From assembly GCA_002430725.1 (NCBI GenBank), contig DJCU01000042.1, positions 1-61,332 on the forward strand: a DNA stretch of 61,332 bases. Reading direction: 5' to 3'. The translations under genes and the position numbers were made by a program. Below are positions 37,564 to 53,281 of the stretch, one piece after another. Within the stretch, counting starts at the first letter, position 1; every line of letters starts with the position of its first letter. Below the pieces are notes generated by a model, which had not been told where the DNA came from, did not search any database, and saw nothing but the letters and a program-made list of their open reading frames with translations. This stretch comes from Candidatus Gottesmanbacteria bacterium UBA5942 (lineage in GTDB: Bacteria > Patescibacteriota > Microgenomatia > UBA10105 > UBA927).

Positions 37564-38895
37564 ATGTCTACTATAAACCCATTTTTATCAGCGATGAAGC
37601 AGTTGGACAATGCACATGCAGCGCTTACCAAGGGTAAGAAAAAAAATACCGCTATAGATCAAAAAGTTGCGCAGCTTCGAGAGCCACAACGCATGGTGAA
37701 TGTCTCTATACCAGTTGTCATGGACGATGGTTCGCAGAAAATATTTCAGGGATACCGCGTGCAATTTAATAATAGTCGAGGCGCTTACAAAGGGGGTATT
37801 CGATATCATCACAATGTCAGTCTCGATGAAGTGAAGGCGTTGTCATTTTGGATGGCGATGAAATGCGCAGTAGCAGATCTTCCCCTCGGGGGAGGGAAAG
37901 GTGGCATTATCGTTGACCCCAAATCACTTTCGGTAGGTGAGCTTGAGAGATTGAGCCGAGGATACGGAAAAGCAATAGCAGACATTATTGGCCCTGATAT
38001 TGATGTACCTGCGCCTGACGTGAACACAAATGGAATTATTATGGGGTGGATGGTGGATGAGTTTTTGAAGGTGCAGCGAAAAAAAGCAAAGCTACTTGGT
38101 GTGACGCTGACGAAGCGTGATGAGATGAAGCTAAAAAGCACGTTTACGGGGAAAGCTATTCGCGATGGGGGAAGCGAAGGGCGAGAAGAAGCAACAGGAT
38201 TAGGCGGACTATTTGTGCTCAAGACAATACTAAAAAAACTTCGATTAAAAGGGAGGCTTACCGCAGCGGTACAGGGATTTGGGAATGTTGGGTACAACAT
38301 CGTGAAGTTTTTGGATGAAGCGGGAATTACTGTGGTCGCAGTTTCAGACAGTAAAGGCGGCATTTATGTTCCTGAAGGTATAAATCCTGCTCTTACGCTT
38401 GAGTGTAAAAAGAAGAATGGTCCGCCAGATGGCGGATTAGCGGGATGTTATTGTTCCGGTTCAGTATGTGATTTGAAAAAAGGGAAGCAGGTGACGAATG
38501 ATGCATTGTTGGAGTTGCCGGTCGATATATTGGTCCCGGCCGCGCTTGAAAACGCGATAACCGAAAAAAATGCCAGCAAGGTGAGGGCGAAAGTAGTGCT
38601 TGAGATGGCAAACGGCCCAACAACGCCTGAAGCAGACGTTATTCTTTATAAGAAAGGTATTCCGGTTATTCCCGATATCTTAAGTAACAGCGGGGGAGTG
38701 ACCGTATCAGCATTCGAATGGGAGCAGAACCTGAAAGGGCAGCATTGGACAAAAGCCCAAGTAAATACGAAGCTTGCCAAAAAAATGACTGATGCAGCCG
38801 GGGCGGTGTGGATCGCTTCGGTTTCGCATAAGACAGATTTGCGAACAGCGGCATTTATCGTGGCTCTCGAGCGAATACTCAAAGCCATGAAATAG
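37564..38895 (+). CDS. gdh: Glu/Leu/Phe/Val dehydrogenase family (probable glutamate dehydrogenase)
   Basis: KGGIRYHH..LPLGGGKGGI catalytic-Lys block and GFGNVG Rossmann motif. Confidence 0.85.
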   Translation: MSTINPFLSAMKQLDNAHAALTKGKKKNTAIDQKVAQLREPQRMVNVSIPVVMDDGSQKIFQGYRVQFNNSRGAYKGGIRYHHNVSLDEVKALSFWMAMKCAVADLPLGGGKGGIIVDPKSLSVGELERLSRGYGKAIADIIGPDIDVPAPDVNTNGIIMGWMVDEFLKVQRKKAKLLGVTLTKRDEMKLKSTFTGKAIRDGGSEGREEATGLGGLFVLKTILKKLRLKGRLTAAVQGFGNVGYNIVKFLDEAGITVVAVSDSKGGIYVPEGINPALTLECKKKNGPPDGGLAGCYCSGSVCDLKKGKQVTNDALLELPVDILVPAALENAITEKNASKVRAKVVLEMANGPTTPEADVILYKKGIPVIPDILSNSGGVTVSAFEWEQNLKGQHWTKAQVNTKLAKKMTDAAGAVWIASVSHKTDLRTAAFIVALERILKAMK

Positions 38896-38914: not shown

Positions 38915-38944
38915 TTGACACGTATGCCTACATGACACTACTAT
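38915..38944 (+). promoter_or_regulatory. candidate promoter 1 of the novel cluster
   Basis: TTGACA (38915..38920)-N18-TACTAT (38939..38944). Confidence 0.45.
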
Positions 38945-38975
38945 GGGTATAGAAACGAGCGCTGCCTCAAGCTTG

Positions 38976-39005
38976 TTGACAACCTATCTCATTGTTCGCT
39001 ACAGT
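38976..39005 (+). promoter_or_regulatory. candidate promoter 2 of the novel cluster
   Basis: TTGACA (38976..38981)-N18-TACAGT (39000..39005), just upstream of ATG 39016. Confidence 0.45.
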
Positions 39006-39015
39006 GAAGTTTAGT

Positions 39016-39348
39016 ATGAATACAATAAATCAAAGTTTTGAAAGTAGGCTTACCGATATTGTCCTCAAAATTGAAAAATCTGGTTGGACTGATGAGGACA
39101 AAGAGGCGATGTATGCCAAGATAAGTGAATATCTTCATGAGTCTGTGCTTCCCGTTATTTTGCAGTACGCTCCCAGCGAAGAAGTGAAGGCGATGGCCGC
39201 AGATGCTTCCAAGGCTACGGTTGATGCATATATTGCGCTTATGAAAAAGCCGTTAAGCGATCCTAAGATGTACGAAGAACTCAATAAGACCGTACAGGAA
39301 GTGTTAGACGATGTAGAAACTGCCCTTTCCAAAGGAGGGATAGTATGA
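39016..39348 (+). CDS. small acidic helical protein, family S (S1)
   Basis: Paralog of S2 and S3 (IEKSGWTDEDKEAMYAKI..VLPVILQYAPSEE). Its stop overlaps the next start (ATGA at 39345..39348). Confidence 0.7.
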   Translation: MNTINQSFESRLTDIVLKIEKSGWTDEDKEAMYAKISEYLHESVLPVILQYAPSEEVKAMAADASKATVDAYIALMKKPLSDPKMYEELNKTVQEVLDDVETALSKGGIV

Positions 39349-39869
39349 GCGAACAATCTATGGGTGAGGCCGCAATGAACCCGAGAAGTCGGGCAATTGC
39401 ATATCTTGAGATGAAGCAGAGTGGAAGATTTCAGGGTGGTCGGGAAAAGAATATTAAAACTCCGATTGCTCCAGAAAAAGTTCGGCGTGCAGCTCCGTTG
39501 GTAGAGACGGTGGAGGCCTACGAGCAAATGATTGATAAAATGGGACAAAAGGGTTTTGAAGGTTCACAACAGATGCTTGCAGACTTGCGTCCGGCAGCTT
39601 ACGAGGCGGCACAGGCAGTACAGTTTGGTGCGAGACTTGCGGATATTGCCCTTACCATCGCTATTCCATTTACGAGGATAGGACTTTTGGCAAAAGCGGG
39701 TGGTATATGGGCAACGATGCGATATCGTCCAGCGGAGTGGGCGGTTGGGAAAATGGCGAAAATTGGCGGTGCAGTCGTAACTTCAGAAGCAGTGGCACCT
39801 ATCGTCAATAAAATACTGCATGGCGGAGAACGGGTAAAACCAGGTGAGCCAGCTATGGCAGCCGCATAA
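39345..39869 (+). CDS. partner protein with central hydrophobic Gly/Ala-rich hairpin (B1)
   Basis: AAAGGAGGG RBS lies inside the S1 3' end. Hydrophilic N-terminus, then IALTIAIPFTRIGLLAKAGGIWATM and KIGGAVVTSEAVAPIV. Confidence 0.7.
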   Translation: MSEQSMGEAAMNPRSRAIAYLEMKQSGRFQGGREKNIKTPIAPEKVRRAAPLVETVEAYEQMIDKMGQKGFEGSQQMLADLRPAAYEAAQAVQFGARLADIALTIAIPFTRIGLLAKAGGIWATMRYRPAEWAVGKMAKIGGAVVTSEAVAPIVNKILHGGERVKPGEPAMAAA

Positions 39870-39872
39870 GCT

Positions 39873-40184
39873 ATGGAACAGCGACTTGATGACATCATCA
39901 CGCGTATAGAAGCATCTTCATTGTCTGCAGCCGAAAAAGCGCAGCTTTATGCTGCAATTTCCGGAGGATTGAAAGGCTCTGTGTGGCCGGTACTGATGAA
40001 GCTTGCTCCTCCAGGCGAAATCGATGAAATCCTCAAAGAAACTGATGAGAAGAAAAAAGTAGAGCGGTATAACACACTCATTTCAGGCGTTGTTGATACC
40101 GACAGCTCCTATGCAGAAATAGAAGAAGTAATGAATAAATTATTGGATGAAGTAGATGCTGCCTTGAAGGAGGAGCAGATATGA
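39873..40184 (+). CDS. small acidic helical protein, family S (S2)
   Basis: MEQRLDDIITRIEASSLSAAEKAQLYAAISGGLKGSVWPVLMKLAPP, clearly homologous to S3. It starts 3 nt after the B1 stop. Confidence 0.75.
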   Translation: MEQRLDDIITRIEASSLSAAEKAQLYAAISGGLKGSVWPVLMKLAPPGEIDEILKETDEKKKVERYNTLISGVVDTDSSYAEIEEVMNKLLDEVDAALKEEQI

Positions 40185-40678
40185 CCGAAGTAACTGAAAC
40201 ACCGGTACAAGCGGAGAAAGAGCCAGGAGCAGTCAAGCGTGTTGCTGAGCGGATTAGCACGTTTCTTAAAGAAACATACACCCTTAAAGGGGCAACGGCA
40301 AAAGAAGTGGCGAAATACAACACGTTGTATGCCAGTTTTACTCCGTCACAACGGGAAGAGTTGGTTGCATTTAATGAAAAAGCAATTCATAAAACCGCTA
40401 TGCGTAAGGTTGTCCGCAATTGGGTTATCACCGGTGCGGGACTTGCCGCAGGGTGGGGGATTGCGACTGGTGGACTACCTGCTATGTGGGCATTTATGAC
40501 GAAAACCGCGCCTGTTGCAATTGGTACTGGGCTAGAAGCTATACGAACATGGATGTTTGATCCTCAAAAAACGTTGCTTATAGACGTACCGAATAAATTA
40601 TCTGATATCGCAAAAAATATTGGTGACTTTTTTGCTAAGGGGCCGGGATTACCATCTAAAATTAAAATTATTCCCTAA
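40181..40678 (+). CDS. partner protein with GxxxG-rich hydrophobic hairpin (B2)
   Basis: ATGA overlap with S2 and an AGGAGG RBS. Hydrophobic segment VITGAGLAAGWGIATGGLPAMWAF. Confidence 0.7.
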   Translation: MTEVTETPVQAEKEPGAVKRVAERISTFLKETYTLKGATAKEVAKYNTLYASFTPSQREELVAFNEKAIHKTAMRKVVRNWVITGAGLAAGWGIATGGLPAMWAFMTKTAPVAIGTGLEAIRTWMFDPQKTLLIDVPNKLSDIAKNIGDFFAKGPGLPSKIKIIP

Positions 40679-40705
40679 TAGTGGGGTGCTTATAAAGGAG
40701 GCGGC

Positions 40706-41035
40706 ATGGAAGATAAGTTAAAAGCAATCGTAACACGAATAGAACAAAGCAAGCTTTCTGAAGAAGAAAAGGCAGAGCTTTATACCACAATATCTGAAGG
40801 GCTTCAGGTAACGGTCTGGCCGGTGTTACTCAAATACATGCCGAAAGAGCAGCTTGATTTCCTCGCTGCAGATCCAAAAAGTAGAGTGACAGTAGAAAGT
40901 TACTCGCAGCTCATTACTGATACCATTAAAGATGGTCAGGCGCTTACAGAAATCGACACACTCATGAATGAAGTGCTTACAGAAGTAGATAAAGCACTTT
41001 CAGAAGAGGGGATAGATCAAGTAAAGCCAGTATAA
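40706..41035 (+). CDS. small acidic helical protein, family S (S3)
   Basis: MEDKLKAIVTRIEQSKLSEEEKAELYTTISEGLQVTVWPVLLKYMPK, with an AAAGGAGG RBS. Confidence 0.75.
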   Translation: MEDKLKAIVTRIEQSKLSEEEKAELYTTISEGLQVTVWPVLLKYMPKEQLDFLAADPKSRVTVESYSQLITDTIKDGQALTEIDTLMNEVLTEVDKALSEEGIDQVKPV

Positions 41036-41063
41036 TCTTGCCCAGCAAAGAAAGGATACATCT

Positions 41064-41561
41064 ATGTCAGAAACCGCAATGAACATGGAACCACCAAAAA
41101 AGGGATTGAAAGAGGGATTGCGTCGTGCGTTTACAGTGTCTGGTGCTAAAGAAAAATGGTATCAGGATCACAAAGAAATGGTGGCAAAATACGCAGATGT
41201 GCATAATGGCTTGACCGATGAACAACGATCGGCTGTAATGGCACAAATTGAATCTGACGCCACGAAATCAGCAAAGATTGCAGTCGGAAAACGTACGGGA
41301 GCACTCGCATTGACCTCTGCGGTCGTAGGAACTGCCGGTCTATTGATTGCTAAGCCTGATTTGGCCAGACGGTTTATGGAATGGACACCAAAGATTCTCG
41401 GCAATGAGTTGAGTACTGGAAAAGTCGGAAAAGCAGTATTTACTGGTGCTGACAAAGCACACTCATTTTTAGCAGAGGTATGGACAAGGGCTGGAAGTCT
41501 TAAAGAAGCTGCGTTAGCGCGCGGGAAAGCCTTGTTTACCAAGACTCCGCCAGCAGCTTAA
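41064..41561 (+). CDS. partner protein with hydrophobic segment (B3)
   Basis: Same size (165 aa) and layout as B2. Hydrophobic segment GALALTSAVVGTAGLLIA. Confidence 0.65.
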   Translation: MSETAMNMEPPKKGLKEGLRRAFTVSGAKEKWYQDHKEMVAKYADVHNGLTDEQRSAVMAQIESDATKSAKIAVGKRTGALALTSAVVGTAGLLIAKPDLARRFMEWTPKILGNELSTGKVGKAVFTGADKAHSFLAEVWTRAGSLKEAALARGKALFTKTPPAA

Positions 41562-41647
41562 TTCTACTTCAGTTGGTATAGCCATTCATTTATATTCATG
41601 GTTGTCTCCAATAGACTTTTGTGTTCTACTGGAAAGTAGAGGAAACT

Positions 41648-42325
41648 ATGTCAGAAATTCCCAAAGGCACACAATTTGTCGGTCAGGCAGATGCACGAAA
41701 ATTGCATACAGAGCGGGTAAAACCTGCCGAAACGAAACTATCCCCCGAACAGCAAAAGGTTGCTGAGGTCATGCAAGAAAGTGGGGAAGTGCTGGAAAAA
41801 AAAGTTGTAGACGCGAGAGAAGAGGCTGGGAAAAAACTTCAAGGGTTACATGGAAAAGAGCTGGTCGATGCAGGTAAGAAACAAATGGTTCGAGGACTTT
41901 TGGATACGGTAAAAGCGCAAGTAAAATGGGCTATTGGTGGTGGCATTATTGGCGCAACTCTTGGCGCAGCCGGGAGTAGGGTGTCTGGTGGAGATATGCA
42001 TGATGCTGCCGGGCTGTTAGGTGCAACATGGGCAAGTGGCTCAGCTGCTATTGGTGGTGAGGTGTCAGCACCCCTTGCATATAATAAGAAAGTGGCAGGT
42101 TCTCAGGAATTAACCAAAGTGGGGTGGTCCGATTGGTTAATTTCGGTAGGTTCGAGATTTGCCATTGGGACGCCTATTACACTGTTAACCATGAGATATC
42201 TCCCCTTGGCCGCTGTACAACTTGAAAGTCATGTTTTTCAAGCCATTCTTAATCCGATAACCGTTCGAGGTCTACGAAATGTCATGACCGGCTTACGAGA
42301 GTTGAAAAAGGGAGTTTCAAAATGA
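41648..42325 (+). CDS. glycine-zipper membrane protein (D1)
   Basis: MSEIPKGTQF start behind a GAGGAAA RBS. Hydrophobic segments WAIGGGIIGATLGAAGSRVSGG and AAGLLGATWASGSAAIGG. Confidence 0.7.
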   Translation: MSEIPKGTQFVGQADARKLHTERVKPAETKLSPEQQKVAEVMQESGEVLEKKVVDAREEAGKKLQGLHGKELVDAGKKQMVRGLLDTVKAQVKWAIGGGIIGATLGAAGSRVSGGDMHDAAGLLGATWASGSAAIGGEVSAPLAYNKKVAGSQELTKVGWSDWLISVGSRFAIGTPITLLTMRYLPLAAVQLESHVFQAILNPITVRGLRNVMTGLRELKKGVSK

Positions 42326-42603
42326 GTTTGAAACAAAAAATTAAAGATACTACCCTGTTTACTGATGAGGATAAGATTGCTATCCTTGCTGCAGTCGACA
42401 CCTACGCGTCAGCGGATATAAAAGCGTTAGAGGGCATCATTGATGAGTTTGATATGGTGCACAGTAAAGCTGTTTCTGAGTATAAAAAATCAGTTTCAGA
42501 GGTGCTTCATGATATTGTCATAAAATCCTCTCTTGCTGACCAAAAGAAGTTACAAAGAGCAGCTTCTCTGGTGCAGAGCGGGCTAGACGAACTTCTTCAG
42601 TAA
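42322..42603 (+). CDS. small acidic helical protein, family S (S4)
   Basis: ATGA overlap with D1. N-terminal IKDTTLFTDEDKIAILAAV motif. Confidence 0.7.
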   Translation: MSLKQKIKDTTLFTDEDKIAILAAVDTYASADIKALEGIIDEFDMVHSKAVSEYKKSVSEVLHDIVIKSSLADQKKLQRAASLVQSGLDELLQ

Positions 42604-42610
42604 TTTTTTC

Positions 42611-42637
42611 TTGTCATCATCGTATGTTTGCTATAAT
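42611..42637 (+). promoter_or_regulatory. candidate internal promoter (extended -10) giving a near-leaderless ABC1 mRNA
   Basis: TTGTCA-N15-TGC-TATAAT. The hexamer ends 6 nt before ATG 42644 and there is no SD sequence in between. Confidence 0.4.
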
Positions 42638-42643
42638 CGTTGT

Positions 42644-44812
42644 ATGAATGAACAAGCGCCGAAACCGTTGCGCCATAGGGAGGTTCGTGTTTTGGAACAG
42701 CCCTCCACACCGCCCAAAAATTTAGAAGCGTCTTCGAAATTGCTTCACGCGTTAGAGCAGCAAGATGAGAAAACAATTAGAGAGGGGACAAATGCCCTAG
42801 TAGGCGAAGTGAGCAAAGATTTTGCCCAACATCATGCGCCGCTTACACCTCAGGAAACGTCATCACTTGGTCAGAAAGTAAAAGAGGCGGCTGCTAGCGC
42901 CGGAAAGCGGGTTTCAGAAACTGTTTTTTCACCGGAGATGCAGAAAGATATGGCGGAGTATAAAGATATCGTCTCCGACATAGAAAAAACATATAAGTTT
43001 TCTTCCATCGCACCCGAATTTTATGAAGCTGCGGACAAAATTCGCACGAATACAGTCTTGGAAACGCTCAGTATCTACGGTATTCAACACGCAACAAACC
43101 CCGGACATATCGAAAAGGCTGTTGCCGAAGTCGTGGGGTTTTCAGCCGCGAAAGGGAACTGGGATCGCCTAAAGCGAGCAATGACGATTGCCAAGGAAAC
43201 ATTACCCTATGTGTATGTATTGGGACTTATACCACCGCTTGTGAATGGCAGAAAGATAAGTAAACAGTTTGAAGAAAGCACCATGAAGCTCCGTTCTGCT
43301 ATTAACACTCGGGTTGCGCAGTCGGTGTTTATGCGTGATTTTGAATTTATTCATGACAAGCCGGCATCGGAAATTATGAATATTGTCGATAAAGGAAAAC
43401 AGGCGACTGTCGATCTTATGCGAATAACATATAAAGGGATGTTGCCCAAAATAGCTGCGTTAGGGGCAATTACGACTACCGAGTTTTTGATAGCACCGCC
43501 TGCGGGTATTTTGGGGCTCATTCGTATTCCTTTCCTTGCGCGGCATGGAGAACAAACCGCGCGGAAAATATTAAAAGCGCGGGCAGAAAATTTGAAACGT
43601 AAAGATCTTATCGATGCGCGCGTTATGTCCTCATTGCAGAGTTTGGAAGTGGTGCGTACGACAGACAGTATGGTGAACGCCATGGAAGAACTGCAGAGCA
43701 ATATGTCCAAAAGCGATGAGGTTGATGTTGCGGCAGATTCTTCACGAAGTGACAGAGACAAAAAGGAAGCATATTACGGCCTGGGTTATACGTACGGCAT
43801 CCCAATCGTTGCCGCAGGGTGGGAAGCACTTATGAATTGGGATGCGCTCACCAATAAAAATCCGAAAGCTGATCGTCTCAGCAACCCATCACTCAACGTG
43901 ATGCTCGCGGGCACAAGTACTATGGCACTGGAAGGGATTAATGGCGCGATGATAGAAGAAATGGTGCATGATTATACCGATAAAATACAGCCCGCACTTC
44001 AGGATATTCGGAGGATGAATGAGCTACTAGGACCATACGATCAAGTGGACACTCCAGAAGGCCCACGAGAACAATCGCGAGTACCAGTAGAAAGCTTATC
44101 AAACTTTGATATATCAATTCGTAATTTGCGATTTAAAAACATTCTTCACAACGTTTCGATGGATATTCCTCAAGGGTCGTTTGTGACAATTAAAGGTCAG
44201 TCTGGGATAGGAAAAACTACTTTTTTGCGTCATATGTTGGGGCTTTTTAGCGCGGAGGAGGGGAATGTATCCTACGGTGGGCATGATCTTAATTCAATCA
44301 AAAAATATGGAGAACATTCGATATATTCGCAATTGGCGTATGCCAATCAGAATCCTCAGTATTTTGAAAATATGACCCTTCGGGAAAACCTCTTGTTGTG
44401 GACCAAAAAACAGGTGGATACTGATAAAGTGACACAGGTGCTCCACGACTTACATTTAGATCACATTGCCGACCGTATGGATAGCAATGTGAAGCATTTT
44501 TCAGGAGGAGAGCTTCGGCGGATAGGTATTGCAAGGGCGTTACTCAAAGATCCCAAAGTGCTATTCCTTGATGAACCCACCGCTAACCTTGATGAGGCAT
44601 CTGCAAAGCAGGTGTTGGATATTGTGAAACAAATGCGGAAAACAAGACCAGACATGACAGTTGTCGCAGTGACGCACGATCCTAGCTTTGAAGGAATTGC
44701 AGAAAAGATTATAGACTTTGCAGAAGTGAATAAACCTACGGACATGAAAGCAGAATCATTGGGAAACCGCCAAGTATTTTATGCCTCAAGCGCATCTCCC
44801 TCGAAGAAGTAA
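42644..44812 (+). CDS. atypical ABC transporter fusion protein (N-terminal hydrophilic domain + weakly hydrophobic exporter-like TMD + NBD), ABC1
   Basis: Walker A GQSGIGKTT, Q-loop ANQNPQ, signature FSGGELRR, Walker B LFLDEPTANLD, H-loop VTHD. The middle region resembles a type I exporter TMD (RVAQSVFMRDFEFIHDKPASEIMNIVDKG). Confidence 0.85.
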   Translation: MNEQAPKPLRHREVRVLEQPSTPPKNLEASSKLLHALEQQDEKTIREGTNALVGEVSKDFAQHHAPLTPQETSSLGQKVKEAAASAGKRVSETVFSPEMQKDMAEYKDIVSDIEKTYKFSSIAPEFYEAADKIRTNTVLETLSIYGIQHATNPGHIEKAVAEVVGFSAAKGNWDRLKRAMTIAKETLPYVYVLGLIPPLVNGRKISKQFEESTMKLRSAINTRVAQSVFMRDFEFIHDKPASEIMNIVDKGKQATVDLMRITYKGMLPKIAALGAITTTEFLIAPPAGILGLIRIPFLARHGEQTARKILKARAENLKRKDLIDARVMSSLQSLEVVRTTDSMVNAMEELQSNMSKSDEVDVAADSSRSDRDKKEAYYGLGYTYGIPIVAAGWEALMNWDALTNKNPKADRLSNPSLNVMLAGTSTMALEGINGAMIEEMVHDYTDKIQPALQDIRRMNELLGPYDQVDTPEGPREQSRVPVESLSNFDISIRNLRFKNILHNVSMDIPQGSFVTIKGQSGIGKTTFLRHMLGLFSAEEGNVSYGGHDLNSIKKYGEHSIYSQLAYANQNPQYFENMTLRENLLLWTKKQVDTDKVTQVLHDLHLDHIADRMDSNVKHFSGGELRRIGIARALLKDPKVLFLDEPTANLDEASAKQVLDIVKQMRKTRPDMTVVAVTHDPSFEGIAEKIIDFAEVNKPTDMKAESLGNRQVFYASSASPSKK

Positions 44813-44836
44813 GCTGGGTAGGTTACAATAGGGTAT

Positions 44837-47074
44837 ATGACGGTCGAACGCTCCGTAAAACTACCGTTTCAACCAGAGCGACTTACAAAGGTCGACTCGC
44901 TTCCTTTGGTTTCGCCGAGCACAGTGGCATCAGTAGAGCCAATTGTTGCACAAGTAGTGGAAGGAAAATCTCCCGATACAAAGGATGTTTCTAAGATGGT
45001 CACAGGAGTGGCCAAAGACTTACGCGCCCAAGGTATTCCTGTGTCATCTGAGGATATACGTGAGGTACAGAATCGCGCAGATAAGAGTCTTTCAATATCG
45101 TCATCTAATCCTTCATATCAAGAAAGCGAATCAATGCCGGAGTCAGAAGCATTACCCGATATTAATCTCGATGAATATAAAGCTGTTGTGGAAGACATGG
45201 TGCACAACTATGGTGTCGATACAAAGGAGTGGGGGAAAATTAGTCATGTGTTAGGCGTGACCACCCTGATGGGAGATTTTTTGAGCGGGATGCAGCGACA
45301 ACGTTTTACGACACAAAAAGGTCGTATGCTTATGACGCATCATTTTGGTAAGGTTGCTCGAGAGTTACACCTCCAGAAATTAAGTCCAAAGGGGTTTGTT
45401 GAAAACGTGCCGCGTATGCTCAAAGAGAAGGGGAAAGGATTAGGAAAACTTGTCGTTGAAAGCGCGTGGCCATTTTTAGCAAGCCCTGTGTACTGGCTTA
45501 TGGAGCGTCAGGCGGGGAAGATGGCAGGGAAAATGTTTATGACAGAGCGAACACGTTTGCAGGAGCAAGTAAATAACCGTATCGCGGATTCATTATTTAT
45601 GCGTAATTTTGAATACCTCAATAACACACCATCGGGAGAAATGATGGAGATCATAAATCGTGGGAAAGACGCGACTATTGATCTCATGGCAGCGGTGTAT
45701 GAAGAGCTCATTCCTTTGAAATATGCCATGTGGGGCTCTATCGGAAAACAGCTTATGATAAACAGGTGGGATGCCGCAGCATCACTTGTGAAAAAGGTGA
45801 TACTGGAGGGTAGGGTGAAACCGAACGCACAGCGTATACAACGACAAAATGATGAAGCGCTCAAGCGGTGGGATATCGTCAATACGAAGCTCCTTACGAC
45901 ACTACAAGGGCTTGAAACAGTGCGGACGACTGGTAATGCAGAAGCGGGAAGTGATGTATTGTATCACGCGCTTGCAGAACGTGACTTTGTCGAAGCGGGC
46001 GGTATGCGAGAGAAGCGAAAGCAGGACGTGGCGATGAATAGGCTGCTTGACGTTATGGATATTGGTATCCCAGTGACGACCGAGGGTCTGAAGTTGTGGG
46101 GCGAGATACGAAATGGCGTCAATCAACTAGGAAATCCGTATACAGCATCGGATATGTTTAACAGCATGGCAGACGCTTGGTTTCGTATCACTGGATCTCA
46201 GGCAGAGCAGCAGTATTTGCGGCAAATGTTACTTCAAAAAACGCATTTATTTGTGAACCGGATTATTCCCGATATTCAGGATATTAAACGGATGGAGGAA
46301 GTGTTGGGGTCTTACGATCTTCTTGATCATCCACAAGGTATAAGGGAACAGGCGAGGATGCCTGTTTCTGAACTTAAAAACTTTGATATTAAAGTAGAAA
46401 ATCTCACATTTAAGCACATATTACATGGAGTTAATCTTGATATTCCACAAGGGTCTTTTGTGACAATTAAAGGGCCATCCGGCATTGGTAAAAGTACGCT
46501 ATTCCGTCATCTGGTAGGGCTTTATAGTGGGGAAGAAGGGCAAGTGCGGTACGGAGGAGCTTCGATTGATACGATTAAAAAATATGGCGACCAGTCGTTG
46601 TTTACCAAAATTGCGTATGCCAATCAAAACCCACAGTATTTTGAAGACATGACATTACGGGAAAATTTGTTGTTATGGACAAAAGAAGAGATAGGGGATG
46701 ATCGAATACAGAGCGTCCTTCGTGATCTAAAACTGGATCAGATAATCAACAGGCTTGATACGAAAACAAAACATTTTTCCGGTGGTGAAATGCGGAGAAT
46801 CGGTATCGCGCGTGCGTTATTAAAAGACCCAAAGGTATTGTTTTTGGACGAGCCCACTGCAAATTTAGATGCAGTATCTACTCGTCAGGTGATGCACATT
46901 ATCGAGGAGCTTCGGAAAAATAGACCGGATATGACAGTGGTTGCTATCACCCATGATCCAGTATTTGAAAAGATCGCTGAAAAAATAGTGGATTTTGAAA
47001 AAATAAACAAAAAACCTGAGGGAATATCGTTAGGAGACCATCAGGTGCTGGAAGCAATAGCGAAGCCCAGCTAG
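44837..47074 (+). CDS. atypical ABC transporter fusion protein, paralog of ABC1 (ABC2)
   Basis: Walker A GPSGIGKST, FSGGEMRR, LFLDEPTANLD, ITHD. It is collinear with ABC1 over the TMD-like and NBD regions. Confidence 0.85.
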   Translation: MTVERSVKLPFQPERLTKVDSLPLVSPSTVASVEPIVAQVVEGKSPDTKDVSKMVTGVAKDLRAQGIPVSSEDIREVQNRADKSLSISSSNPSYQESESMPESEALPDINLDEYKAVVEDMVHNYGVDTKEWGKISHVLGVTTLMGDFLSGMQRQRFTTQKGRMLMTHHFGKVARELHLQKLSPKGFVENVPRMLKEKGKGLGKLVVESAWPFLASPVYWLMERQAGKMAGKMFMTERTRLQEQVNNRIADSLFMRNFEYLNNTPSGEMMEIINRGKDATIDLMAAVYEELIPLKYAMWGSIGKQLMINRWDAAASLVKKVILEGRVKPNAQRIQRQNDEALKRWDIVNTKLLTTLQGLETVRTTGNAEAGSDVLYHALAERDFVEAGGMREKRKQDVAMNRLLDVMDIGIPVTTEGLKLWGEIRNGVNQLGNPYTASDMFNSMADAWFRITGSQAEQQYLRQMLLQKTHLFVNRIIPDIQDIKRMEEVLGSYDLLDHPQGIREQARMPVSELKNFDIKVENLTFKHILHGVNLDIPQGSFVTIKGPSGIGKSTLFRHLVGLYSGEEGQVRYGGASIDTIKKYGDQSLFTKIAYANQNPQYFEDMTLRENLLLWTKEEIGDDRIQSVLRDLKLDQIINRLDTKTKHFSGGEMRRIGIARALLKDPKVLFLDEPTANLDAVSTRQVMHIIEELRKNRPDMTVVAITHDPVFEKIAEKIVDFEKINKKPEGISLGDHQVLEAIAKPS

Positions 47075-47085
47075 TGTATTTATTT

Positions 47086-47093
47086 GCTATACT
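47086..47093 (+). promoter_or_regulatory. candidate extended -10 element
   Basis: TGC-TATACT sits in the same TTTGCTATA[AC]T context as 42627..42637 and ends 11 nt before ATG 47105. Confidence 0.35.
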
Positions 47094-47104
47094 CTTTTAT
47101 ATAT

Positions 47105-48112
47105 ATGGATGAAATGCCGGAAATTCCACAAAAAGAACGAGTGGTGATGTCTCCCGAGCTTGCTGAGCGTATTGATCATGCACGGATGGAGATAGCAGCG
47201 CAAGGGCAAGATCCTCAGGCAGTGGCAGGCAGAAATATTGCCGAAATGGGATTTATGAAAGCGTTATGGGAGACAGCGAAGCCACACACCAAAAAATTGC
47301 AGGAAATACAGTTTAAGCAGATAAAGGCGCAAGGAGCTGCGGTGCTGAGCCTTATCCCCATTATCGGTGAAGGAAAAGCATTTTTGAGTACAGTGGGTAT
47401 TACCAAAGGATTTGAAAAAGGAGTACAAACATTTAAAGCAGAAAAAGGACTCCGAAAGCTTAAGGCAATCGGGAAAGGGCTAGGGAGGGCGATGGCAGAA
47501 AACGCACCGGAAGCAGTGAAGGCTGGATCGTTATATGAAAAAGCACGCGCGGGTAGTGTAGTCGCAAGAGAACAAGCGGCAGCAGCGGTGAGAGCTGAAA
47601 ATATTGCAAAAAATATTGCGGTGAGTTCTTACGAAACTGCCCGCGATGCACAGAAAGCGATGAAGGGTGCTGAGAAATGGAATAAAGCTGTGACGAAAGT
47701 TGCAATAAATGAAAGTCTTGATGCAGCTGCTGCAGCTGCAGGAAAAACAGGCATGGGGAAGTGGGCGTTTAAGGAATTTGAAAAAAGAAAATTGTCCGGT
47801 ATGAAAATATTGGGAAATCCTGAGAAACGCGCAGGAATTTGGCATTTTCTCGATTTAACTCCTGATGTACCAGGTTGGCTTTCTCTTACTACTGCAGCTG
47901 GTGAAATGGTGGGAGTCCACGGAATTGATGTAATCCCTGCGGTATTACAGATGGGGAAAAATACGATTGATCAGGTGGCAACGTATGGAAAACTCACGAA
48001 GGACGTCTGGAACTTGGCAGTGACACGTGTGACGGGTAAGGGGAAGGATGTAGCGCGGGCGGCAGCAGTATTTGAGCCAAGACCACCAGTCTCAGCAGGA
48101 GGAATGGCATGA
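47105..48112 (+). CDS. hypothetical protein D2 (Ala/Lys-rich helical middle, hydrophobic IPxxG segments)
   Basis: MDEMPEIPQK (compare D1 MSEIPKG). Hydrophobic segments AAVLSLIPIIGEGKAF and GIDVIPAVLQMG. Confidence 0.65.
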   Translation: MDEMPEIPQKERVVMSPELAERIDHARMEIAAQGQDPQAVAGRNIAEMGFMKALWETAKPHTKKLQEIQFKQIKAQGAAVLSLIPIIGEGKAFLSTVGITKGFEKGVQTFKAEKGLRKLKAIGKGLGRAMAENAPEAVKAGSLYEKARAGSVVAREQAAAAVRAENIAKNIAVSSYETARDAQKAMKGAEKWNKAVTKVAINESLDAAAAAAGKTGMGKWAFKEFEKRKLSGMKILGNPEKRAGIWHFLDLTPDVPGWLSLTTAAGEMVGVHGIDVIPAVLQMGKNTIDQVATYGKLTKDVWNLAVTRVTGKGKDVARAAAVFEPRPPVSAGGMA

Positions 48113-48369
48113 ACAAAAAAATCGCATTAGTTGATCTTATCGAAGTAAGTGTTCTTTTGACCGCTGAACAAAAGTTGTTGCTATTGGATGAGTTACCGGA
48201 GTTTAATGAAAAACAAGTTGCCGCATTGGGTACATTTCTTGCCATGGAACAACAATTTATCAACGAACATAAAGATGAAATATTGACGAATATGAAAGAG
48301 ATCTATAATGACCTTCATCTTGATGAGGCACAAAAAAATCAGGTATTTGTGGGGACAGGGAAACCGTAA
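48109..48369 (+). CDS. small acidic helical protein, family S (S5)
   Basis: ATGA overlap with D2 and an AGGAGG RBS. Motif IEVSVLLTAEQKLLLLDEL. Confidence 0.7.
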   Translation: MNKKIALVDLIEVSVLLTAEQKLLLLDELPEFNEKQVAALGTFLAMEQQFINEHKDEILTNMKEIYNDLHLDEAQKNQVFVGTGKP

Positions 48370-48467
48370 GATAACTATTAACTTTTCACTTTTGACTATT
48401 AACCAGAAGTTCCCGGGTACTTTTTTTAGGTCAACTGTTACCAGTTAAGAGTTAAAGGTTAAAAAGT
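48370..48467 (+). repeat. intergenic copy of a TTAAC-rich palindromic repeat
   Basis: GATAACTATTAACTTTT and GACTATTAACCAGA are identical to 56436..56452 and to part of 56453..56473 inside the 23S intron. Confidence 0.6.
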
Positions 48468-49382
48468 ATGGCCGAAAACTATAGTCAGCAATATCGAGGT
48501 AAAGTAATCCACGTCTATCTCGGAGAAGGGAAAGCAGACCCGCCAAAACCAGAGGTAAAAAAAGCAGACACCTTGTATCACAAGCACATGCAAGAGTTGT
48601 TTGACATTATTGCCCCTGAAGCTGTTTCGGAGCGCATCGATGCGGTCAATACACAAGGTGAATTAGCGACAGCAACTGCGGAATTATTGCGGGAAAAATC
48701 ATCAGCGAGAGAGCGGTATAAAGAACACAAGGATTTTAAGCGGTTTGTTCATGAGTTAGATGGAGAATGGCGCGGAAGAGAGCTACCGCATAAATTAGAA
48801 CGGTTTTTGCTCTTTAGTGTGATGGGAAGCTTTTATACCGGTCTTGATTTTGTATCCAACTATCTTGCTGAAAAAACATTTCTTCGGAAAGACATAACGA
48901 AAATTGGTCTGGGAAAGTCTGGTATTTCATTGGATGCAGCAGACACCAATGGTAACCGTAAAGCGCTTAAAGCCGGGTGGGAGATGCTTTCTGATAAGCT
49001 TATTGGTCTGTTTTCTGATAAATCAGTCAAAGAAACGACAAATCGTGATGATGTGGCATTTGTGTCGCCAATATCTGACGCGTTGGCATCAGTCGGTAAC
49101 ATCGCAGTGTCGCTTGCTACCCCGAGTGATAAAAAGCCTATCCATTGGTTATTAAATTCGATTATTAACCCAGGTTCTATAGAGGCAGGGTTTCGTACGC
49201 TTTCTGCAATTCCATTGGCTGGAGCCAAAGTAGAAAATATGTATATAGCCCTCAATAAGCAGTTGTTGAGAGGGGAGGGTGTTTTACCGTATGGTTTTGA
49301 TGTGGCGCTTACTATGCTTGCTGCCAAAGAAACACAAAAGAAAGATGTGGAATTAGTGTTAGAGCACGTTGCGCAAAAATAG
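48468..49382 (+). CDS. hypothetical protein, family L (D3)
   Basis: Shares the blocks YTGLDFVSNYLAEKTF and IINPGSIEAGFRTLSAIPLAGAKV with D4, D5 and D6. Confidence 0.65.
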   Translation: MAENYSQQYRGKVIHVYLGEGKADPPKPEVKKADTLYHKHMQELFDIIAPEAVSERIDAVNTQGELATATAELLREKSSARERYKEHKDFKRFVHELDGEWRGRELPHKLERFLLFSVMGSFYTGLDFVSNYLAEKTFLRKDITKIGLGKSGISLDAADTNGNRKALKAGWEMLSDKLIGLFSDKSVKETTNRDDVAFVSPISDALASVGNIAVSLATPSDKKPIHWLLNSIINPGSIEAGFRTLSAIPLAGAKVENMYIALNKQLLRGEGVLPYGFDVALTMLAAKETQKKDVELVLEHVAQK

Positions 49383-49383
49383 T

Positions 49384-49701
49384 ATGAAACAAAATATCAC
49401 TCAATTTATCGATATAGTGAGGGAGAGTAAGGTATTAAACGCCGAGCAGAAGAGGGAGCTATTGGATAATCCAGCACTTTTGCCGGAAACATATCGTGAG
49501 CGGATTGCTGAAATACTTACAAACTATAATGATCGGGCACGTGCAAGAGAAATGCAGCTGGGAAGCCGAGTGAATGATGCGACAAAGCGATTTGAGCAAG
49601 CGCTTGATGAGGTTGGAGTTGCTCCCGAGGAGAAGCAACAGCTGTTAGAAAAATTGAGGCAACACACTGCCACATTGACCATGGCAGCGCCCGCGTCTTG
49701 A
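49384..49701 (+). CDS. small helical protein, family S (S6)
   Basis: Its ATG lies 1 nt after the D3 TAG. Motif VRESKVLNAEQKRELLDNP. Confidence 0.65.
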   Translation: MKQNITQFIDIVRESKVLNAEQKRELLDNPALLPETYRERIAEILTNYNDRARAREMQLGSRVNDATKRFEQALDEVGVAPEEKQQLLEKLRQHTATLTMAAPAS

Positions 49702-49737
49702 CCGTAATACGCTAAACAGAGTACTCTGATAAGAGTT

Positions 49738-50823
49738 ATGCAACACAAGGAACAATCATTTTCTCCTCCAAAAGAGTCGTGGTCTTCAGGCGCCCCAAAG
49801 CCTGAGACTGCGCAATCACGTGAGAAATCTTCGTTAAAAAAACTCGGGGATGTGGTCGGTGACGTGCTACGAGATGTGAGTACGGCAAACCAGATGGCTG
49901 CAGATAAATTTGACGGTGATAGCGCGCTTATGCGTACTGCCCGCGGTTTTGTGACGACAGGTATCGGAGTTGGGCTAGAGAAATCCATGAATTTTGTATG
50001 GGACAAGGTGTGGCAGGGTGATATTCCGTTTTATGACAAATCCAAATTCGGGACAGGGATGGCGGAAGCGATGAATAGATTTGCCCAAAAAAGCGACTTT
50101 AACGCCCGCATGTATCACCTGATGAAAGAGGGAACGCAGGATTTGTCGCTTGCCATATTTTATAATTTTCTCGCGTTCCGCTCGCAGCCATTACTCCCTA
50201 AAGCAGAGCCAAAACATTTACTCACCGCATTGACTGCAGATGCTATGGAGGCGTTTGTAAAGCCAATTTCGCCAAATCTGCCGGGTAAAGTGCAATTTGA
50301 TGCACAACGGGGGACAAACGCGATAGTGACAGAGCAAATCGAGGCGCTTGATGACAAGATGGCTCAATTTGCTTCGAGATCCTACTATGACAGAGTAAAG
50401 GATGTACAAGTGTCTCCGATGAGTGATCAAATAGAAAAATTAAAAGAGAGAAAAAAAGCGTTACAGGGAAGGATAGGGGAATTGCATGTCCCAGAGGAGG
50501 GGGGAAATCTCGAGAAATTTATCCATAAGTTTGTCGATATTTCAAATCCTGTAACAGTATTGGGAATTGATATGATTAGTGGAGGTCTTGCTACCCTTAT
50601 TCGTAACTTCAAGGAAGTACGAAAGGTACGGAAAGAAAAAGGCGGATTGGAAGGGAAAAAAGTGTTCATGCCAAAAAAAGAGAATTGGAAAGATCGCGGA
50701 GGTGATCGGAAGCCGTATAACGAAAAGCGTGACTATAGTAAAGATAAAGTATATGTAGGCAAGTCAAATTGGAAAGATAAAAAAATACAGGAGGAATATG
50801 ACCTCAAAGTCGATGATACATAA
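49738..50823 (+). CDS. hypothetical protein, family L (D4), Lys-rich C-terminus
   Basis: TTGIGVGLEKSMNFVWDKVW and ISNPVTVLGIDMISGGLATL blocks. Confidence 0.65.
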   Translation: MQHKEQSFSPPKESWSSGAPKPETAQSREKSSLKKLGDVVGDVLRDVSTANQMAADKFDGDSALMRTARGFVTTGIGVGLEKSMNFVWDKVWQGDIPFYDKSKFGTGMAEAMNRFAQKSDFNARMYHLMKEGTQDLSLAIFYNFLAFRSQPLLPKAEPKHLLTALTADAMEAFVKPISPNLPGKVQFDAQRGTNAIVTEQIEALDDKMAQFASRSYYDRVKDVQVSPMSDQIEKLKERKKALQGRIGELHVPEEGGNLEKFIHKFVDISNPVTVLGIDMISGGLATLIRNFKEVRKVRKEKGGLEGKKVFMPKKENWKDRGGDRKPYNEKRDYSKDKVYVGKSNWKDKKIQEEYDLKVDDT

Positions 50824-51097
50824 AAAAATTCAGGCAACGCGGTTGTTTTCAGATGCACAAAAAGTACAACTTTTGGTGCAGCTTACTGATGCAAGTGAGG
50901 ACGATAAAAAGAAGCTCGAGGAGGGCATTGATGCGTTTGACCGTGAGTACAAAGAAGCCATGGGAAAGCGGGGAGAAGAGATACTGGAACTCCTTACTAT
51001 GATAATGAAGGACATGCCCGAAGAAGAACGAAAAAAGAACCAAGACACGATTGACGAAATTGTGATGGGTACGGCTATTCTTCAGCCACTCAATTAG
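50798..51097 (+). CDS. small acidic helical protein, family S (S7)
   Basis: AGGAGG RBS 4 nt before the ATG. It overlaps the D4 end by 26 nt. Motif IQATRLFSDAQKVQLLVQL. Confidence 0.65.
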   Translation: MTSKSMIHKKIQATRLFSDAQKVQLLVQLTDASEDDKKKLEEGIDAFDREYKEAMGKRGEEILELLTMIMKDMPEEERKKNQDTIDEIVMGTAILQPLN

Positions 51098-51193
51098 CTC
51101 CGGATAGGTAAATAAATCTCTACTTGCTATAGGACTAGTGTTGTGGTACACTCCTGTCTAAACTTCAGCATAAGGCTGAATTTTTGTAATTTT

Positions 51194-51976
51194 ATGAACG
51201 TAGAAACTAAACCACAACGCCAATATTCCGCCTCAGAACAGGGGTTTCAGCGGATTATGAATGAAGGTCCTCACGCCCCCAAAAATGGCGGTGAATACAA
51301 ATCCGGAGATTTCGCAAAGCGCGTATTCTTTAACACCTCGATGCTTGTCGGGGGATTGGGTATCGATTTAGCAGAAAGTGCCGTTGCCAAATGGGCGATT
51401 AACAAGGTATTTGATCCTCGCATCGATGGCCTTAAAGGGACAATATCCCAGTTGGGTCACGCAAAGCCGGAAGGATTTGAAGACAAAATTAGCGCCGCAA
51501 AAGACAGTATCCGCACACAGCATGCTATAAAAGAGGGTGTCAAGTTTATCGAAGAGTGGGGTTCTGACTCTGCTTACGTAGGTGCCACCAACGCGCTTGC
51601 ACGCACGCTCACCGGTGTGCCTGAAGCAACCTATGTTAAAGGAACGGCTGAAGTCGTTTCTGACTGGGCAAATGCAATCATGCAGGTATTCGGCGGCGAC
51701 AAAAAAGTGACGCTGTTGAAATACAAAGGACTCCCACTGTTTGCCACCGAAATGCAGAATTTTGTCAATCCGACCGATGTCGAAGCGGTATTTCGCTTGC
51801 TTGCCGAAATTCCGGGTGTCGGATGGGTGAAAAATAAGCTTGACCACACGGTTGAGCACTCAAAAGTGGTCAAATACGCCAATATTGCTGCCTCAAAAGG
51901 GTTACTTGGCTACCACATTACGAACGCCGGTCAAAAGGCGATCGATAGGGCTGTGGCAGAAGCGCTCGCCAAATAA
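51194..51976 (+). CDS. hypothetical protein, family L (D5)
   Basis: GGLGIDLAESAVAKWAINKVF and FVNPTDVEAVFRLLAEIPGVGWV blocks. ATG 51194 is preferred to GTG 51143. Confidence 0.65.
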   Translation: MNVETKPQRQYSASEQGFQRIMNEGPHAPKNGGEYKSGDFAKRVFFNTSMLVGGLGIDLAESAVAKWAINKVFDPRIDGLKGTISQLGHAKPEGFEDKISAAKDSIRTQHAIKEGVKFIEEWGSDSAYVGATNALARTLTGVPEATYVKGTAEVVSDWANAIMQVFGGDKKVTLLKYKGLPLFATEMQNFVNPTDVEAVFRLLAEIPGVGWVKNKLDHTVEHSKVVKYANIAASKGLLGYHITNAGQKAIDRAVAEALAK

Positions 51977-52053
51977 TCTCCCTAAATTCTTGTTTGTTAT
52001 AGGCTAATTTCTATGGTATAATTTTACATAATGCCATAGGGCATTCTTTTTGT

Positions 52054-52896
52054 ATGACGACCAAAGAAACACCACAAGCCATGCTCAAAGACCCAGTCGC
52101 AAGCTGGAAGCAGGATTTGGTTGCCCACGAGCGGAAGCAGGCAGAAAAGCTCTATCAGGTGGGCGAGTTTTCCCCGTATACCAAAGAGGCGAGGCCGATT
52201 AAATGGGATGCGTTTCGTGACGCAAGTTACGAATGGATATCGAGTCCTGGTACATTCCTCAAAAATATCGGAACGCATGTCCGGAATATCGACACGGATT
52301 TTCGTGGCGGGCGGGATTATGGAAACGCGGGCGAACGTCTCGAGCGGGTGAAAGCGTATGCGGGGATCATCGCACTATTTACCGCGTTTGATGCTGCTAC
52401 AAGCATGCCTCTCATTGGTCTGAAGAAGACAGAAAGAAAAGGAGAAGGACTTACCGCGGATGATCACCGATATAATGCCAATCTTCTTTCATTTATGAAA
52501 CTTATCGATGTACTAAATGATAAATATGCAACAGCATTGGGTAATATGTACGTGGAGGATAAAACGGGGAAGCGGGGATTTATCCATGAGATGTCAGATA
52601 AAGGCGCAGACACCATACAGACAGGATTTGATAAGACAAATGATTTGGTAAATGGTGCAACCCTTGAAGGATATCTTCGTATCATATCCCAGATACCGGT
52701 TGCTGGAGCATTGTTTGAGCAGGGAGTGACCCGAATTTCGGGCTGGCAGGAGAAATCTTCTCTTCATACAGCAACAGGAAAAATGATCTACATGGCGTTG
52801 GGTATTTATATAAAACATATGCGCAGAGCAGTCACTGAAGATGGTAAATCCGCAAAGTTGATATCCCCGGATGTCATTGCCAGATTTGGATTGTGA
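52054..52896 (+). CDS. hypothetical protein, family L (D6)
   Basis: LVNGATLEGYLRIISQIPVAGALF block. A TGG-TATAAT extended -10 lies at 52014..52022 upstream. Confidence 0.65.
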   Translation: MTTKETPQAMLKDPVASWKQDLVAHERKQAEKLYQVGEFSPYTKEARPIKWDAFRDASYEWISSPGTFLKNIGTHVRNIDTDFRGGRDYGNAGERLERVKAYAGIIALFTAFDAATSMPLIGLKKTERKGEGLTADDHRYNANLLSFMKLIDVLNDKYATALGNMYVEDKTGKRGFIHEMSDKGADTIQTGFDKTNDLVNGATLEGYLRIISQIPVAGALFEQGVTRISGWQEKSSLHTATGKMIYMALGIYIKHMRRAVTEDGKSAKLISPDVIARFGL

Positions 52897-53267: not shown

Positions 53268-53281
53268 CATAGCTCGTGTAT

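Follow-up and report, generated by a model that had tools for sequence, protein, structure and literature searches.

What is the function of eighteen consecutive genes that a host-dependent bacterium keeps in its core genome, when 16 of the 18 encoded proteins have no detectable relatives? This question is raised by positions 38,915 to 52,896 of contig DJCU01000042.1 (assembly GCA_002430725.1) of Candidatus Gottesmanbacteria bacterium UBA5942, a contig stretch of 61,332 nucleotides (nt) that is called the window below. The species belongs to the Patescibacteria, also named candidate phyla radiation (CPR), a host-dependent assemblage that accounts for a large share of bacterial diversity. To our knowledge, almost nothing is known of CPR cell-surface machinery. 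A first-pass annotation of the cluster, made by reading the letters and translations, had noted a tandem pair of atypical ATP-binding cassette (ABC) proteins surrounded by repeated families of small and larger proteins, and had proposed an export or membrane-insertion system or, alternatively, an array of polymorphic toxins and immunity proteins. In the present analysis, the cluster emerges as a lineage-restricted operon whose products are devoid of cysteine and whose engine belongs to the type IV ABC exporters as a new and strongly derived variant. Our tentative reading is a machine for export or assembly that is powered by the ABC proteins and served by dedicated pairs of chaperone and client; it has to be weighed against several others.

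Gene content, distribution and cysteine exclusion

Eighteen successive open reading frames (ORFs) occupy the plus strand between gdh (37564-38895), whose product matches PF00208 and PF02812 in Pfam, and a downstream unit (53195-57109) made of tRNA-Ala(TGC) at 53195-53268, the 23S rRNA gene at 53503-56854 and then the 5S rRNA gene. They encode two ABC proteins (ABC1 and ABC2), seven small proteins (S1 to S7) and nine larger ones (B1 to B4 and D1 to D5). This layout was correctly seen in the first-pass annotation, and the seven junctions listed there are all exact, with ATGA start/stop overlaps at 39345, 40181, 42322 and 48109, gaps of 1 nt before 49384 and of 3 nt before 39873, and a 26-nt overlap at 50798. 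Six starts should be shifted downstream to an ATG, namely those of S1 (39016), B4 (41648), ABC1 (42644), D1 (47105), S6 (49384) and D4 (51194), because homologue lengths match the shorter forms, public gene calls on an identical locus give S1 110 amino acids (aa) and ABC1 722 aa, conservation among orthologues begins at those ATGs, and the dropped extensions of ABC1 and D4 carry the only cysteines of these ORFs. A locus that is 91% identical (L001) shares 16 of the genes and differs from the cluster at 329 first, 172 second and 1699 third codon positions. The excess at third positions is present in every one of the 16 genes, small ones included, which identifies them as real coding genes, each under purifying selection. 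Both the GC content and the GC skew of the cluster are the same as those of its flanks.

One genome for each of 185,579 species was scanned in turn with the ABC N-domain, with S3 and with D2, which gave 14, 18 and 6 loci, respectively, all from the Gottesmanbacteria lineage. The cluster is confined to Candidatus Gottesmanbacteria (CPR, Microgenomates), where about 18-20 species genomes carry it; the nearest public loci are in metagenome-assembled genomes of this group. When 1.84 billion representative proteins were searched exhaustively by HMMER with the N-domain of ABC1, just 45 were retrieved at E <=1e-3. Ninety-six homologues of S3 were found, and all those with a source name are assigned to Gottesmanbacteria or Patescibacteria. 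An S3 protein of identical sequence is indexed in 69 blocks of the assembly collection. Scans of 2.9 million viral contigs found no relatives of the cluster, and literature searches found no account of it. Several metagenome-assembled genomes that carry the cluster, at 43-91% protein identity, are titled 'uncultured Gammaproteobacteria' (L002, L003, L006, L013, L018, L032, L033 and L036) or 'Woesebacteria' (L037), and these labels are probably wrong.

Conserved synteny in relatives, on which the first-pass annotation had made its proposal depend, proved to be strong. Mapping with hidden Markov models (HMMs) showed one-to-one orthologues in a fixed order across at least 14 loci. Even the most distant loci (L017, L019, L038 and L039) keep a core that begins with S3, a second S3-like gene, B3 and one ABC2-like gene, and continues with D1, S5, D2, S6, D3, S7, D4 and D5. 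Loci carry one to three ABC paralogues, and an ABC2-like protein is the sole ABC of the minimal ones. The number of pairs formed by an S1- to S3-type small protein (family SA, see below) and a B protein also varies between loci, some of which lack the B4-S4 pair. In four other species genomes (L001-L004), the cluster likewise adjoins gdh. S3 orthologues are 75-99% identical, versus 74-87% for gdh, in loci that carry both; the identities of S3, D2 and D3 track or exceed those of housekeeping genes, and B1, D1 and D4 are fast-evolving. The cluster is a core-genome operon of 11-18 genes and not a mobile island. In L013, L014, L020, L030, L032 and L035, extra genes stand between the cluster genes and leave the cluster order undisturbed; as judged by eye, they resemble HEPN/nucleotidyltransferase pairs, AbiEi/AbiEii, PIN domains, a thermonuclease and an AAA-ATPase.

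A feature that goes beyond the first-pass annotation is the system-wide exclusion of cysteine (Cys), which is a new observation. With the corrected starts, the 18 proteins contain no Cys in 4,424 residues, whereas Cys makes up 0.72% of residues in the 35 other ORFs of the window, so that 32 would be expected in the cluster (P ~1e-14). Orthologues in other loci are likewise essentially Cys-free. Some 42 cluster-type ABC proteins have no Cys, or occasionally one, and distant relatives in other genomic contexts have 1-9. No TGY codon stands in frame in the cluster, and the two remaining frames contain 146 and 240 of them. Selection has therefore acted on the proteins, and mutational bias is ruled out as the source of the loss. 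Sulphur sparing is also ruled out, since methionine is enriched 1.26-fold; A, E, K and Q are also over-represented in the proteins. A complete and evolutionarily kept absence of Cys, ATPases included, is a rare system-wide signature and suggests that the working environment or the transport route is unusual. In some monoderm bacteria, proteins destined for export are known to exclude Cys (PMC2823432).

The ABC engine and its accessory proteins

The centre of the cluster is occupied by ABC1 (42644-44812; 722 aa) and ABC2 (44837-47074; 745 aa), which match PF00005 (E 1.1e-32 and 1.6e-32) and are 45% identical over 525 aa; the tandem ABC pair had thus been recognised correctly. Each is a half-size ABC protein. 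In ABC1, a helical N-terminal extension of about 190 aa, in which Tyr106 and Tyr117 are invariant, is followed by a weakly hydrophobic, divergent domain with a predicted exporter fold and by a consensus nucleotide-binding domain (NBD); the paralogue ABC2 also has a consensus NBD. Walker A, Q-loop, SGGE signature, Walker B D-E and H-loop are intact in both proteins and invariant in an alignment of 27 sequences, and in a profile search of PDB the NBD matches ABCB1 and other NBDs at E 1e-38. As both proteins have consensus ATP sites, a dimer of ABC1 and ABC2 would possess two competent ones.

The remainder of these proteins is far more divergent. For their first 465-490 residues, neither Pfam nor a profile search of PDB gives a match, and PF00664 (ABC_membrane) gives no match for ABC1, ABC2 or 28 close homologues. 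Four distant family members (P0164, P0176, P0179 and P0183) exceed the PF00664 gathering threshold, with 36-39 bits for a cutoff of 28, and their match region is homologous to residues 209-465 of ABC1, a link that is transitive only. An AF2 model of ABC1, of moderate confidence (pLDDT 73, pTM 0.55), displays exporter architecture with six long helices N-terminal to the NBD. Foldseek aligned this model over about 600 columns to MsbA, TmrAB, CydDC, Atm1 and PCAT1 (E 1.5e-17 to 1e-15; TM-score 0.45-0.64). The predicted exporter fold and the transitive PF00664 link together indicate that the domain is a divergent exporter-type membrane domain and that, by predicted fold, the two proteins are a type IV half-transporter pair. 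HHalign detected no sequence-level similarity between the ABC N-domain profile and a provisional E. coli MsbA sequence, and it showed no relationship between the N-terminal extension and the S, B and D families. One of the four distant relatives, P0176 (782 aa), is PF00664-positive, weakly hydrophobic and contains 5 Cys. It is encoded on a metabolically rich, non-CPR-like contig (L022, region 7633-12349), directly 3' of a 766-aa ORF with no recorded Pfam match; no S, B or D genes lie nearby, and the neighbourhood is uninformative on function.

The helices of the exporter-type domain are remarkably polar. When segments with a KD19 hydrophobicity of >=1.5 are counted, ABC1 has one (maximum 1.79), which is a Pro-Pro hairpin tip, and ABC2 has none (maximum 1.17), nor does it contain >=16 uncharged residues in a row. 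Counted in this way, two true membrane proteins of the window, a P-type ATPase and a DsbD_2 protein, have eight and seven, and the provisional MsbA sequence has five, at >=1.6. The 45 family representatives are similarly polar, with 0-3 weak segments each. Hydrophobic tips are kept and conserved in ABC1-type proteins, for example in a P..GILG.LR.P.L hairpin, and the hairpin formed by the first two predicted transmembrane (TM) helices looks truncated in ABC1 when its sequence is read against the helices of the model. The cluster ABCs therefore resemble type IV exporters (TmrAB, CydDC, MsbA, Atm1 and the PCAT1 core) in their half-transporter layout of a helical domain followed by an NBD, in their consensus Walker A, Walker B, signature and H-loop motifs, and in their tandem paralogous genes, which suggest a heterodimer. 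They differ in lacking a PF00664 match and Cys, in their polar helices, in the extra N-terminal extension, in an SGGE rather than SGGQ signature, and in the rarity of their family. We know of no described precedent for an ABC exporter with a polar membrane domain.

None of the 16 accessory proteins could be matched to a named domain by eye in the first pass, and database searches agree. No above-threshold match was obtained in Pfam or PHROGs for any of them, or in NCBIfam for the accessory proteins among the first ten genes (S1 to ABC2). A PADLOC search with eight accessory proteins gave nothing meaningful (best, S7 versus PDC-S15, E 0.006), a per-member Pfam scan of family SB gave no consistent weak match, and the D2, SA and SB family profiles matched nothing meaningful among PDB sequences. 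The AF2 model of D2 is all-helical and of low confidence (pLDDT 54.7); Foldseek returned no usable match for it in PDB (best E 0.3). To judge from composition and from this single model, all 16 accessory proteins are probably all-helical. Profile and structure searches place them in no known machine; a confident placement of that kind would, by the first-pass annotation's own criterion, have refuted its proposal.

BLASTP and HHalign divide the cluster proteins into five groups of paralogues, one of which is the ABC pair. The seven small proteins had been described as one family sharing an N-terminal motif, which profile comparison does not confirm. Family SA consists of S1 (39016-39348; 110 aa, charge -8), S2 (39873-40184; 103 aa, charge -10) and S3 (40706-41035; 109 aa, charge -10), the last being the most conserved protein of the cluster, which are linked by HHalign probabilities of 98.7-99.8%. 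Family SB consists of S4 (42322-42603; 93 aa), S5 (48109-48369; 86 aa) and S7 (50798-51097; 99 aa), linked at 92-99% (S4-S7 99%; S5-S7 46%), with S6 (49384-49701; 105 aa) as a marginal member at 31-44%. No relationship is detectable between SA and SB (~3%), and the L[ST]xE[DEQ]K stretch common to S proteins is short and resembles a generic helix cap. Six S proteins are acidic, as had been stated for all; the exception is S6, which is near neutral (charge -1, pI 8.0).

The larger proteins are more diverse, and HHalign did not unite all B and D proteins in a single family. B2 (40181-40678) and B3 (41064-41561), both basic and of 165 aa, are paralogues (93%), the former with an uncharged Gly/Ala/Trp-rich segment of 28 residues (80-107) and the latter with a TM-grade hydrophobic segment at residues 78-96. 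A second paralogue group (87-96%) contains D2 (48468-49382; 304 aa), D4 (51194-51976; 260 aa) and D5 (52054-52896; 280 aa), the final gene of the cluster. D2 has the conserved polar motifs EWRGRELPHKLER, GNRKALKAGWE and NPxxIEAGFR, and D4 the motif NPTDVEAVFR. Singletons at the sensitivity of HHalign are B1 (39345-39869; 174 aa, 27.6% Gly+Ala), which has a single borderline hydrophobic segment (residues 98-116) and no known domain, B4 (41648-42325; 225 aa), in which two uncharged segments are rich in Gly and NPITVRG stands as a C-terminal motif, D1 (47105-48112; 335 aa), which is rich in Ala, Gly and Lys, and D3 (49738-50823; 361 aa), which has a tail rich in Lys and conserves the motif NPVTV; all four are basic. 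A C-terminal NPx[TSD][VIL]x[GA] motif is common to B4, D2, D3, D4 and more distant D-like ORFs elsewhere, and by our own estimate from residue frequencies about 0.02 chance occurrences would be expected in these proteins.

A larger partner adjoins each of the seven small proteins, as noted in the first pass, and D4 and D5 stand without a small partner. The SA gene comes first in its pairs (S1-B1, S2-B2, S3-B3), and the SB-type gene comes second (B4-S4, D1-S5, D2-S6, D3-S7). The stop codons of S1, S2, B4 and D1 overlap the start codons of B1, B2, S4 and S5, S7 begins within D3, and the start/stop overlaps of the pairs are kept across species. Net charges (small protein/partner) are -8/+6, -10/+7 and -10/+9 for S1 to S3, and -4/+8, -7/+14, -1/0 and -5/+9 for S4 to S7, so that the lone near-neutral S protein is paired with the lone neutral D protein. 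With conserved translational coupling and complementary charge, the pairs behave as dedicated partners. The first-pass description of the larger proteins as membrane-active holds for B3 and for some orthologues of B1, B4, D1 and D5, and fails for D2, D4 and nearly all D3 orthologues. KD19 values in the B and D families are mostly 1.1-1.9, and B3 is the only partner that is consistently of TM grade (1.7-1.95 in 6 of 8 orthologues). Signal peptides had not been seen on the larger proteins in the first pass, and indeed the N-termini of all cluster proteins are polar or acidic and none is hydrophobic.

Candidate functions of the system

We tentatively favour a machine that exports or assembles proteins, because the operon is conserved, its ABC proteins combine a predicted exporter fold with intact ATP motifs, and its coupled pairs are complementary in charge, and also because the partners contain near-threshold hydrophobic segments, signal peptides are lacking and Cys is excluded. 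The ABC pair, which the first-pass annotation had suggested as a possible motor, is the only recognisable engine, a predicted exporter-type half-transporter pair with two consensus ATP sites. In different loci the engine consists of one to three paralogous half-size proteins, here ABC1 and ABC2, which presumably act as a dimer with two active sites. The S proteins may be dedicated cytoplasmic chaperones or adaptors that hold their B or D partner soluble and hand it to the ABC dimer. Driven by ATP, the dimer would insert its B and D clients in the cell membrane or move them across it, and there they might assemble as a membrane-associated or surface structure. In this scheme we infer that the S proteins are chaperones and the B and D proteins clients, and also which way transport runs and where the products end up. 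If it is true, the operon encodes a new ABC-based route for moving weakly hydrophobic proteins.

Known secretion systems offer analogies for parts of this scheme. Membrane-protein substrates of the type III and IV secretion systems have sub-threshold hydrophobic segments and a dedicated chaperone that shields them, as in SscB-SseF (PMC6110835). The arrangement of S and B/D proteins resembles such pairs, with a small acidic protein coupled to a larger one that contains a near- or sub-threshold hydrophobic segment. The resemblance is without homology: there is no sequence similarity, the host is a monoderm CPR bacterium, and no injectisome, flagellar or type IV secretion genes are present in the cluster and its immediate flanks. 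Type VII systems (EsxA/EsxB, PE/PPE, LXG-Lap) are likewise encoded by adjacent, co-translated genes for helical proteins of about 100 aa and larger helical partners, in several paralogous pairs per locus. However, no FtsK/SpoIIIE (EccC, EssC), WXG100, PE, PPE or LXG match was found in Pfam for the 18 proteins, and the engine of the cluster is an ABC ATPase. Type I secretion and the related peptidase-containing exporters (HlyB/HlyD/TolC; PCAT and class II bacteriocin exporters) share with the cluster an ABC engine encoded beside candidate substrates without signal peptides, and the NBDs score against the LssB, PrtD and bacteriocin_ABC models of NCBIfam, in matches that are confined to the NBD or extend beyond it by no more than the helix that precedes it. 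The type I-like mode of action that had been suggested nevertheless fails. The N-terminal 190 aa of the ABC proteins are helical and match no Pfam family, with no Peptidase_C39 or C39-like domain; the 16 accessory proteins have no HlyD, Biotin_lipoyl_2 or OEP match in Pfam and hence no membrane-fusion protein; no HemolysinCabind (RTX) match was obtained and no double-glycine leaders were seen on reading the sequences; and the ABC membrane domains are too polar.

Several results weigh against export or assembly as formulated above. With 0-1 hydrophobic segments, as compared with 7-8 in the membrane proteins of the window, the ABC membrane domain may not be embedded in the bilayer, and the ABC2-type proteins that are the sole ABC of minimal loci peak at a KD19 of only about 1.1-1.2. 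An ABC protein that does not span the bilayer could not export proteins in the usual way. The ATPases are as free of Cys as their presumed clients, which a simple argument from exported substrates does not account for. S3 is conserved above the level of housekeeping genes, as would be expected of a central subunit with a structural or regulatory role rather than of a chaperone for one client. TM-grade hydrophobicity is not reached by D2, D4 and nearly all D3 orthologues, and the D2 model, with its low confidence and empty Foldseek search, lends the scheme no structural help.

In the main rival explanation, the exporter-derived dimer has become a water-soluble or monotopic mechanochemical ATPase that exports nothing and, together with the S, B and D proteins, builds or remodels a scaffold of helices in the cytoplasm or at the membrane periphery, for instance a cytoskeletal or organelle-like complex or one that handles lipids. 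We consider it somewhat less probable than export or assembly, itself a tentative reading. A soluble or peripheral machine would explain best why the 'membrane' domain is polar and why S3 is so conserved. The loss of hydrophobicity is extreme and extends over the whole ABC family, down to the absence of any long uncharged stretch from ABC2; D2, D4 and nearly all D3 orthologues lack a TM-grade segment, the gene set is fixed and stoichiometric with one-to-one orthology, and enrichment in A, E, K and Q is typical of soluble helical bundles. Such a machine leaves the strict exclusion of Cys unexplained, since neighbouring cytoplasmic enzymes contain Cys, and it does not predict the hydrophobic tips that ABC1-type proteins conserve or the TM-grade segment of B3. 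Moreover, we know of no soluble type IV exporter-fold protein, although no literature search was dedicated to the point. If the dimer did prove soluble, the exporter fold would be repurposable outside the membrane.

The export or assembly reading can also be taken further. In monoderm CPR bacteria, the operon might encode a new type of system that translocates or assembles proteins by means of ABC ATPases, with Cys-free, sub-threshold B and D proteins as clients and S proteins as private chaperones, a proposal that we regard as rather unlikely. The target membrane of such a system could be that of the host cell to which these episymbionts attach. In the boldest form of the proposal, the weakly hydrophobic, Cys-free ABC proteins may themselves be part of the cargo.

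A bacteriocin or pore-forming toxin array, in which the ABC pair would export membrane-damaging B and D proteins and the S proteins would neutralise them, appears improbable. The idea draws on basic, Gly/Ala-rich proteins with hydrophobic segments that adjoin small acidic partners, on an exporter-type engine whose NBDs, and only the NBDs, score well against bacteriocin-exporter models of NCBIfam, and on the toxin-antitoxin- and defence-like genes recognised by eye in some variant loci. The polymorphic toxin/immunity array of the first-pass annotation is contradicted by one-to-one orthology and by the fixed order in all loci, which are unlike the strain-to-strain variability of polymorphic toxins, and by an S3 that is more conserved than gdh. 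Pfam searches found no C39 peptidase domain, no double-glycine leaders were seen on reading the sequences, and the partners are proteins of 165-361 aa, not peptides. Immunity to pore-formers is normally conferred by membrane proteins and not by soluble ones such as the S proteins, and D2, D4 and D5 have conserved polar motifs rather than toxin-like hypervariable ends.

A mobile element, prophage remnant or anti-phage defence island with incidental ABC-type ATPases is very improbable: the NBDs do match PADLOC models (mad3, mad8, AriA and LmuB) and HEPN/MNT, AbiE-like and PIN genes were recognised by eye in variant loci, but those models are generic for ABC-type ATPases and are the only link to known anti-phage systems, no accessory protein tested has a PHROG or PADLOC match, no integrase or repeats were noted, the chromosomal position beside gdh is the same in L001-L004, and a phage or mobile origin is rejected on the uniform GC content and skew and on the absence of relatives from the viral contigs.

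Expression signals and genomic surroundings

The statement that most genes have a strong AGGAGG ribosome-binding site (RBS) is not borne out, as this sequence precedes only 5 of the 18 genes (B1, B2, S3, S5 and S7); a partial motif precedes B3, B4, S4 and D2, and the other nine genes have none. Genes with AGGAGG are mostly the downstream member of a coupled pair, and S3 is an upstream member. Five genes that lack a Shine-Dalgarno sequence (ABC1, ABC2, D1, D3 and S1) have -10-like hexamers 6-11 nt before their ATG. TATAAT stands 6 nt before the ATG of ABC1 (42626-42643), TACAAT 7 nt before that of ABC2 (44818-44836), and a further hexamer precedes that of D1 (47085-47104). A fuller promoter-like element, the conserved TTGACC-18-TAC(T/G)CT, lies 10 nt before the ATG of D3 (49696-49737). 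Upstream of S1 there are two such sites, TTGACA-18-TACTAT at 38915-38944 and TTGACA-18-TACAGT at 38976-39005, the second of which ends 10 nt before the S1 ATG (38976-39015 with the spacer), and TTGTTA-17-TATAAT is present before D5 (51994-52022). All of these are on the plus strand. The motifs upstream of ABC1, ABC2 and D3 are conserved in 3-5 orthologous loci. Their placement suggests internal promoters that would give rise to leaderless mRNAs or mRNAs with very short leaders.

In the region beyond the cluster, no 16S gene is present upstream of the tRNA-Ala/23S/5S unit, and the rRNA genes appear to be unlinked. The ORFs at 57224-57805 (minus strand; 193 aa) and 59196-59891 (plus strand; 231 aa), past the rRNA unit, have no Pfam match at E <=1e-5 and are unrelated to the cluster families by HMM search. 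The 23S gene contains a group I intron at 56189-56553 (84.9 bits). Upstream of gdh, a redox/copper set (31209-37521) comprises a CopA-like P-type ATPase with an HMA domain on the minus strand, a DsbD_2-cupredoxin fusion, a thioredoxin-reductase-like protein and an FNR-like NAD-binding protein. The genes for the last three, together with gdh, are syntenic with the cluster in L001-L004. Towards the other end of the window, two tRNA-Met(CAT) genes are located on opposite strands about 1 kb apart (5317-5391, minus; 6400-6470, plus).

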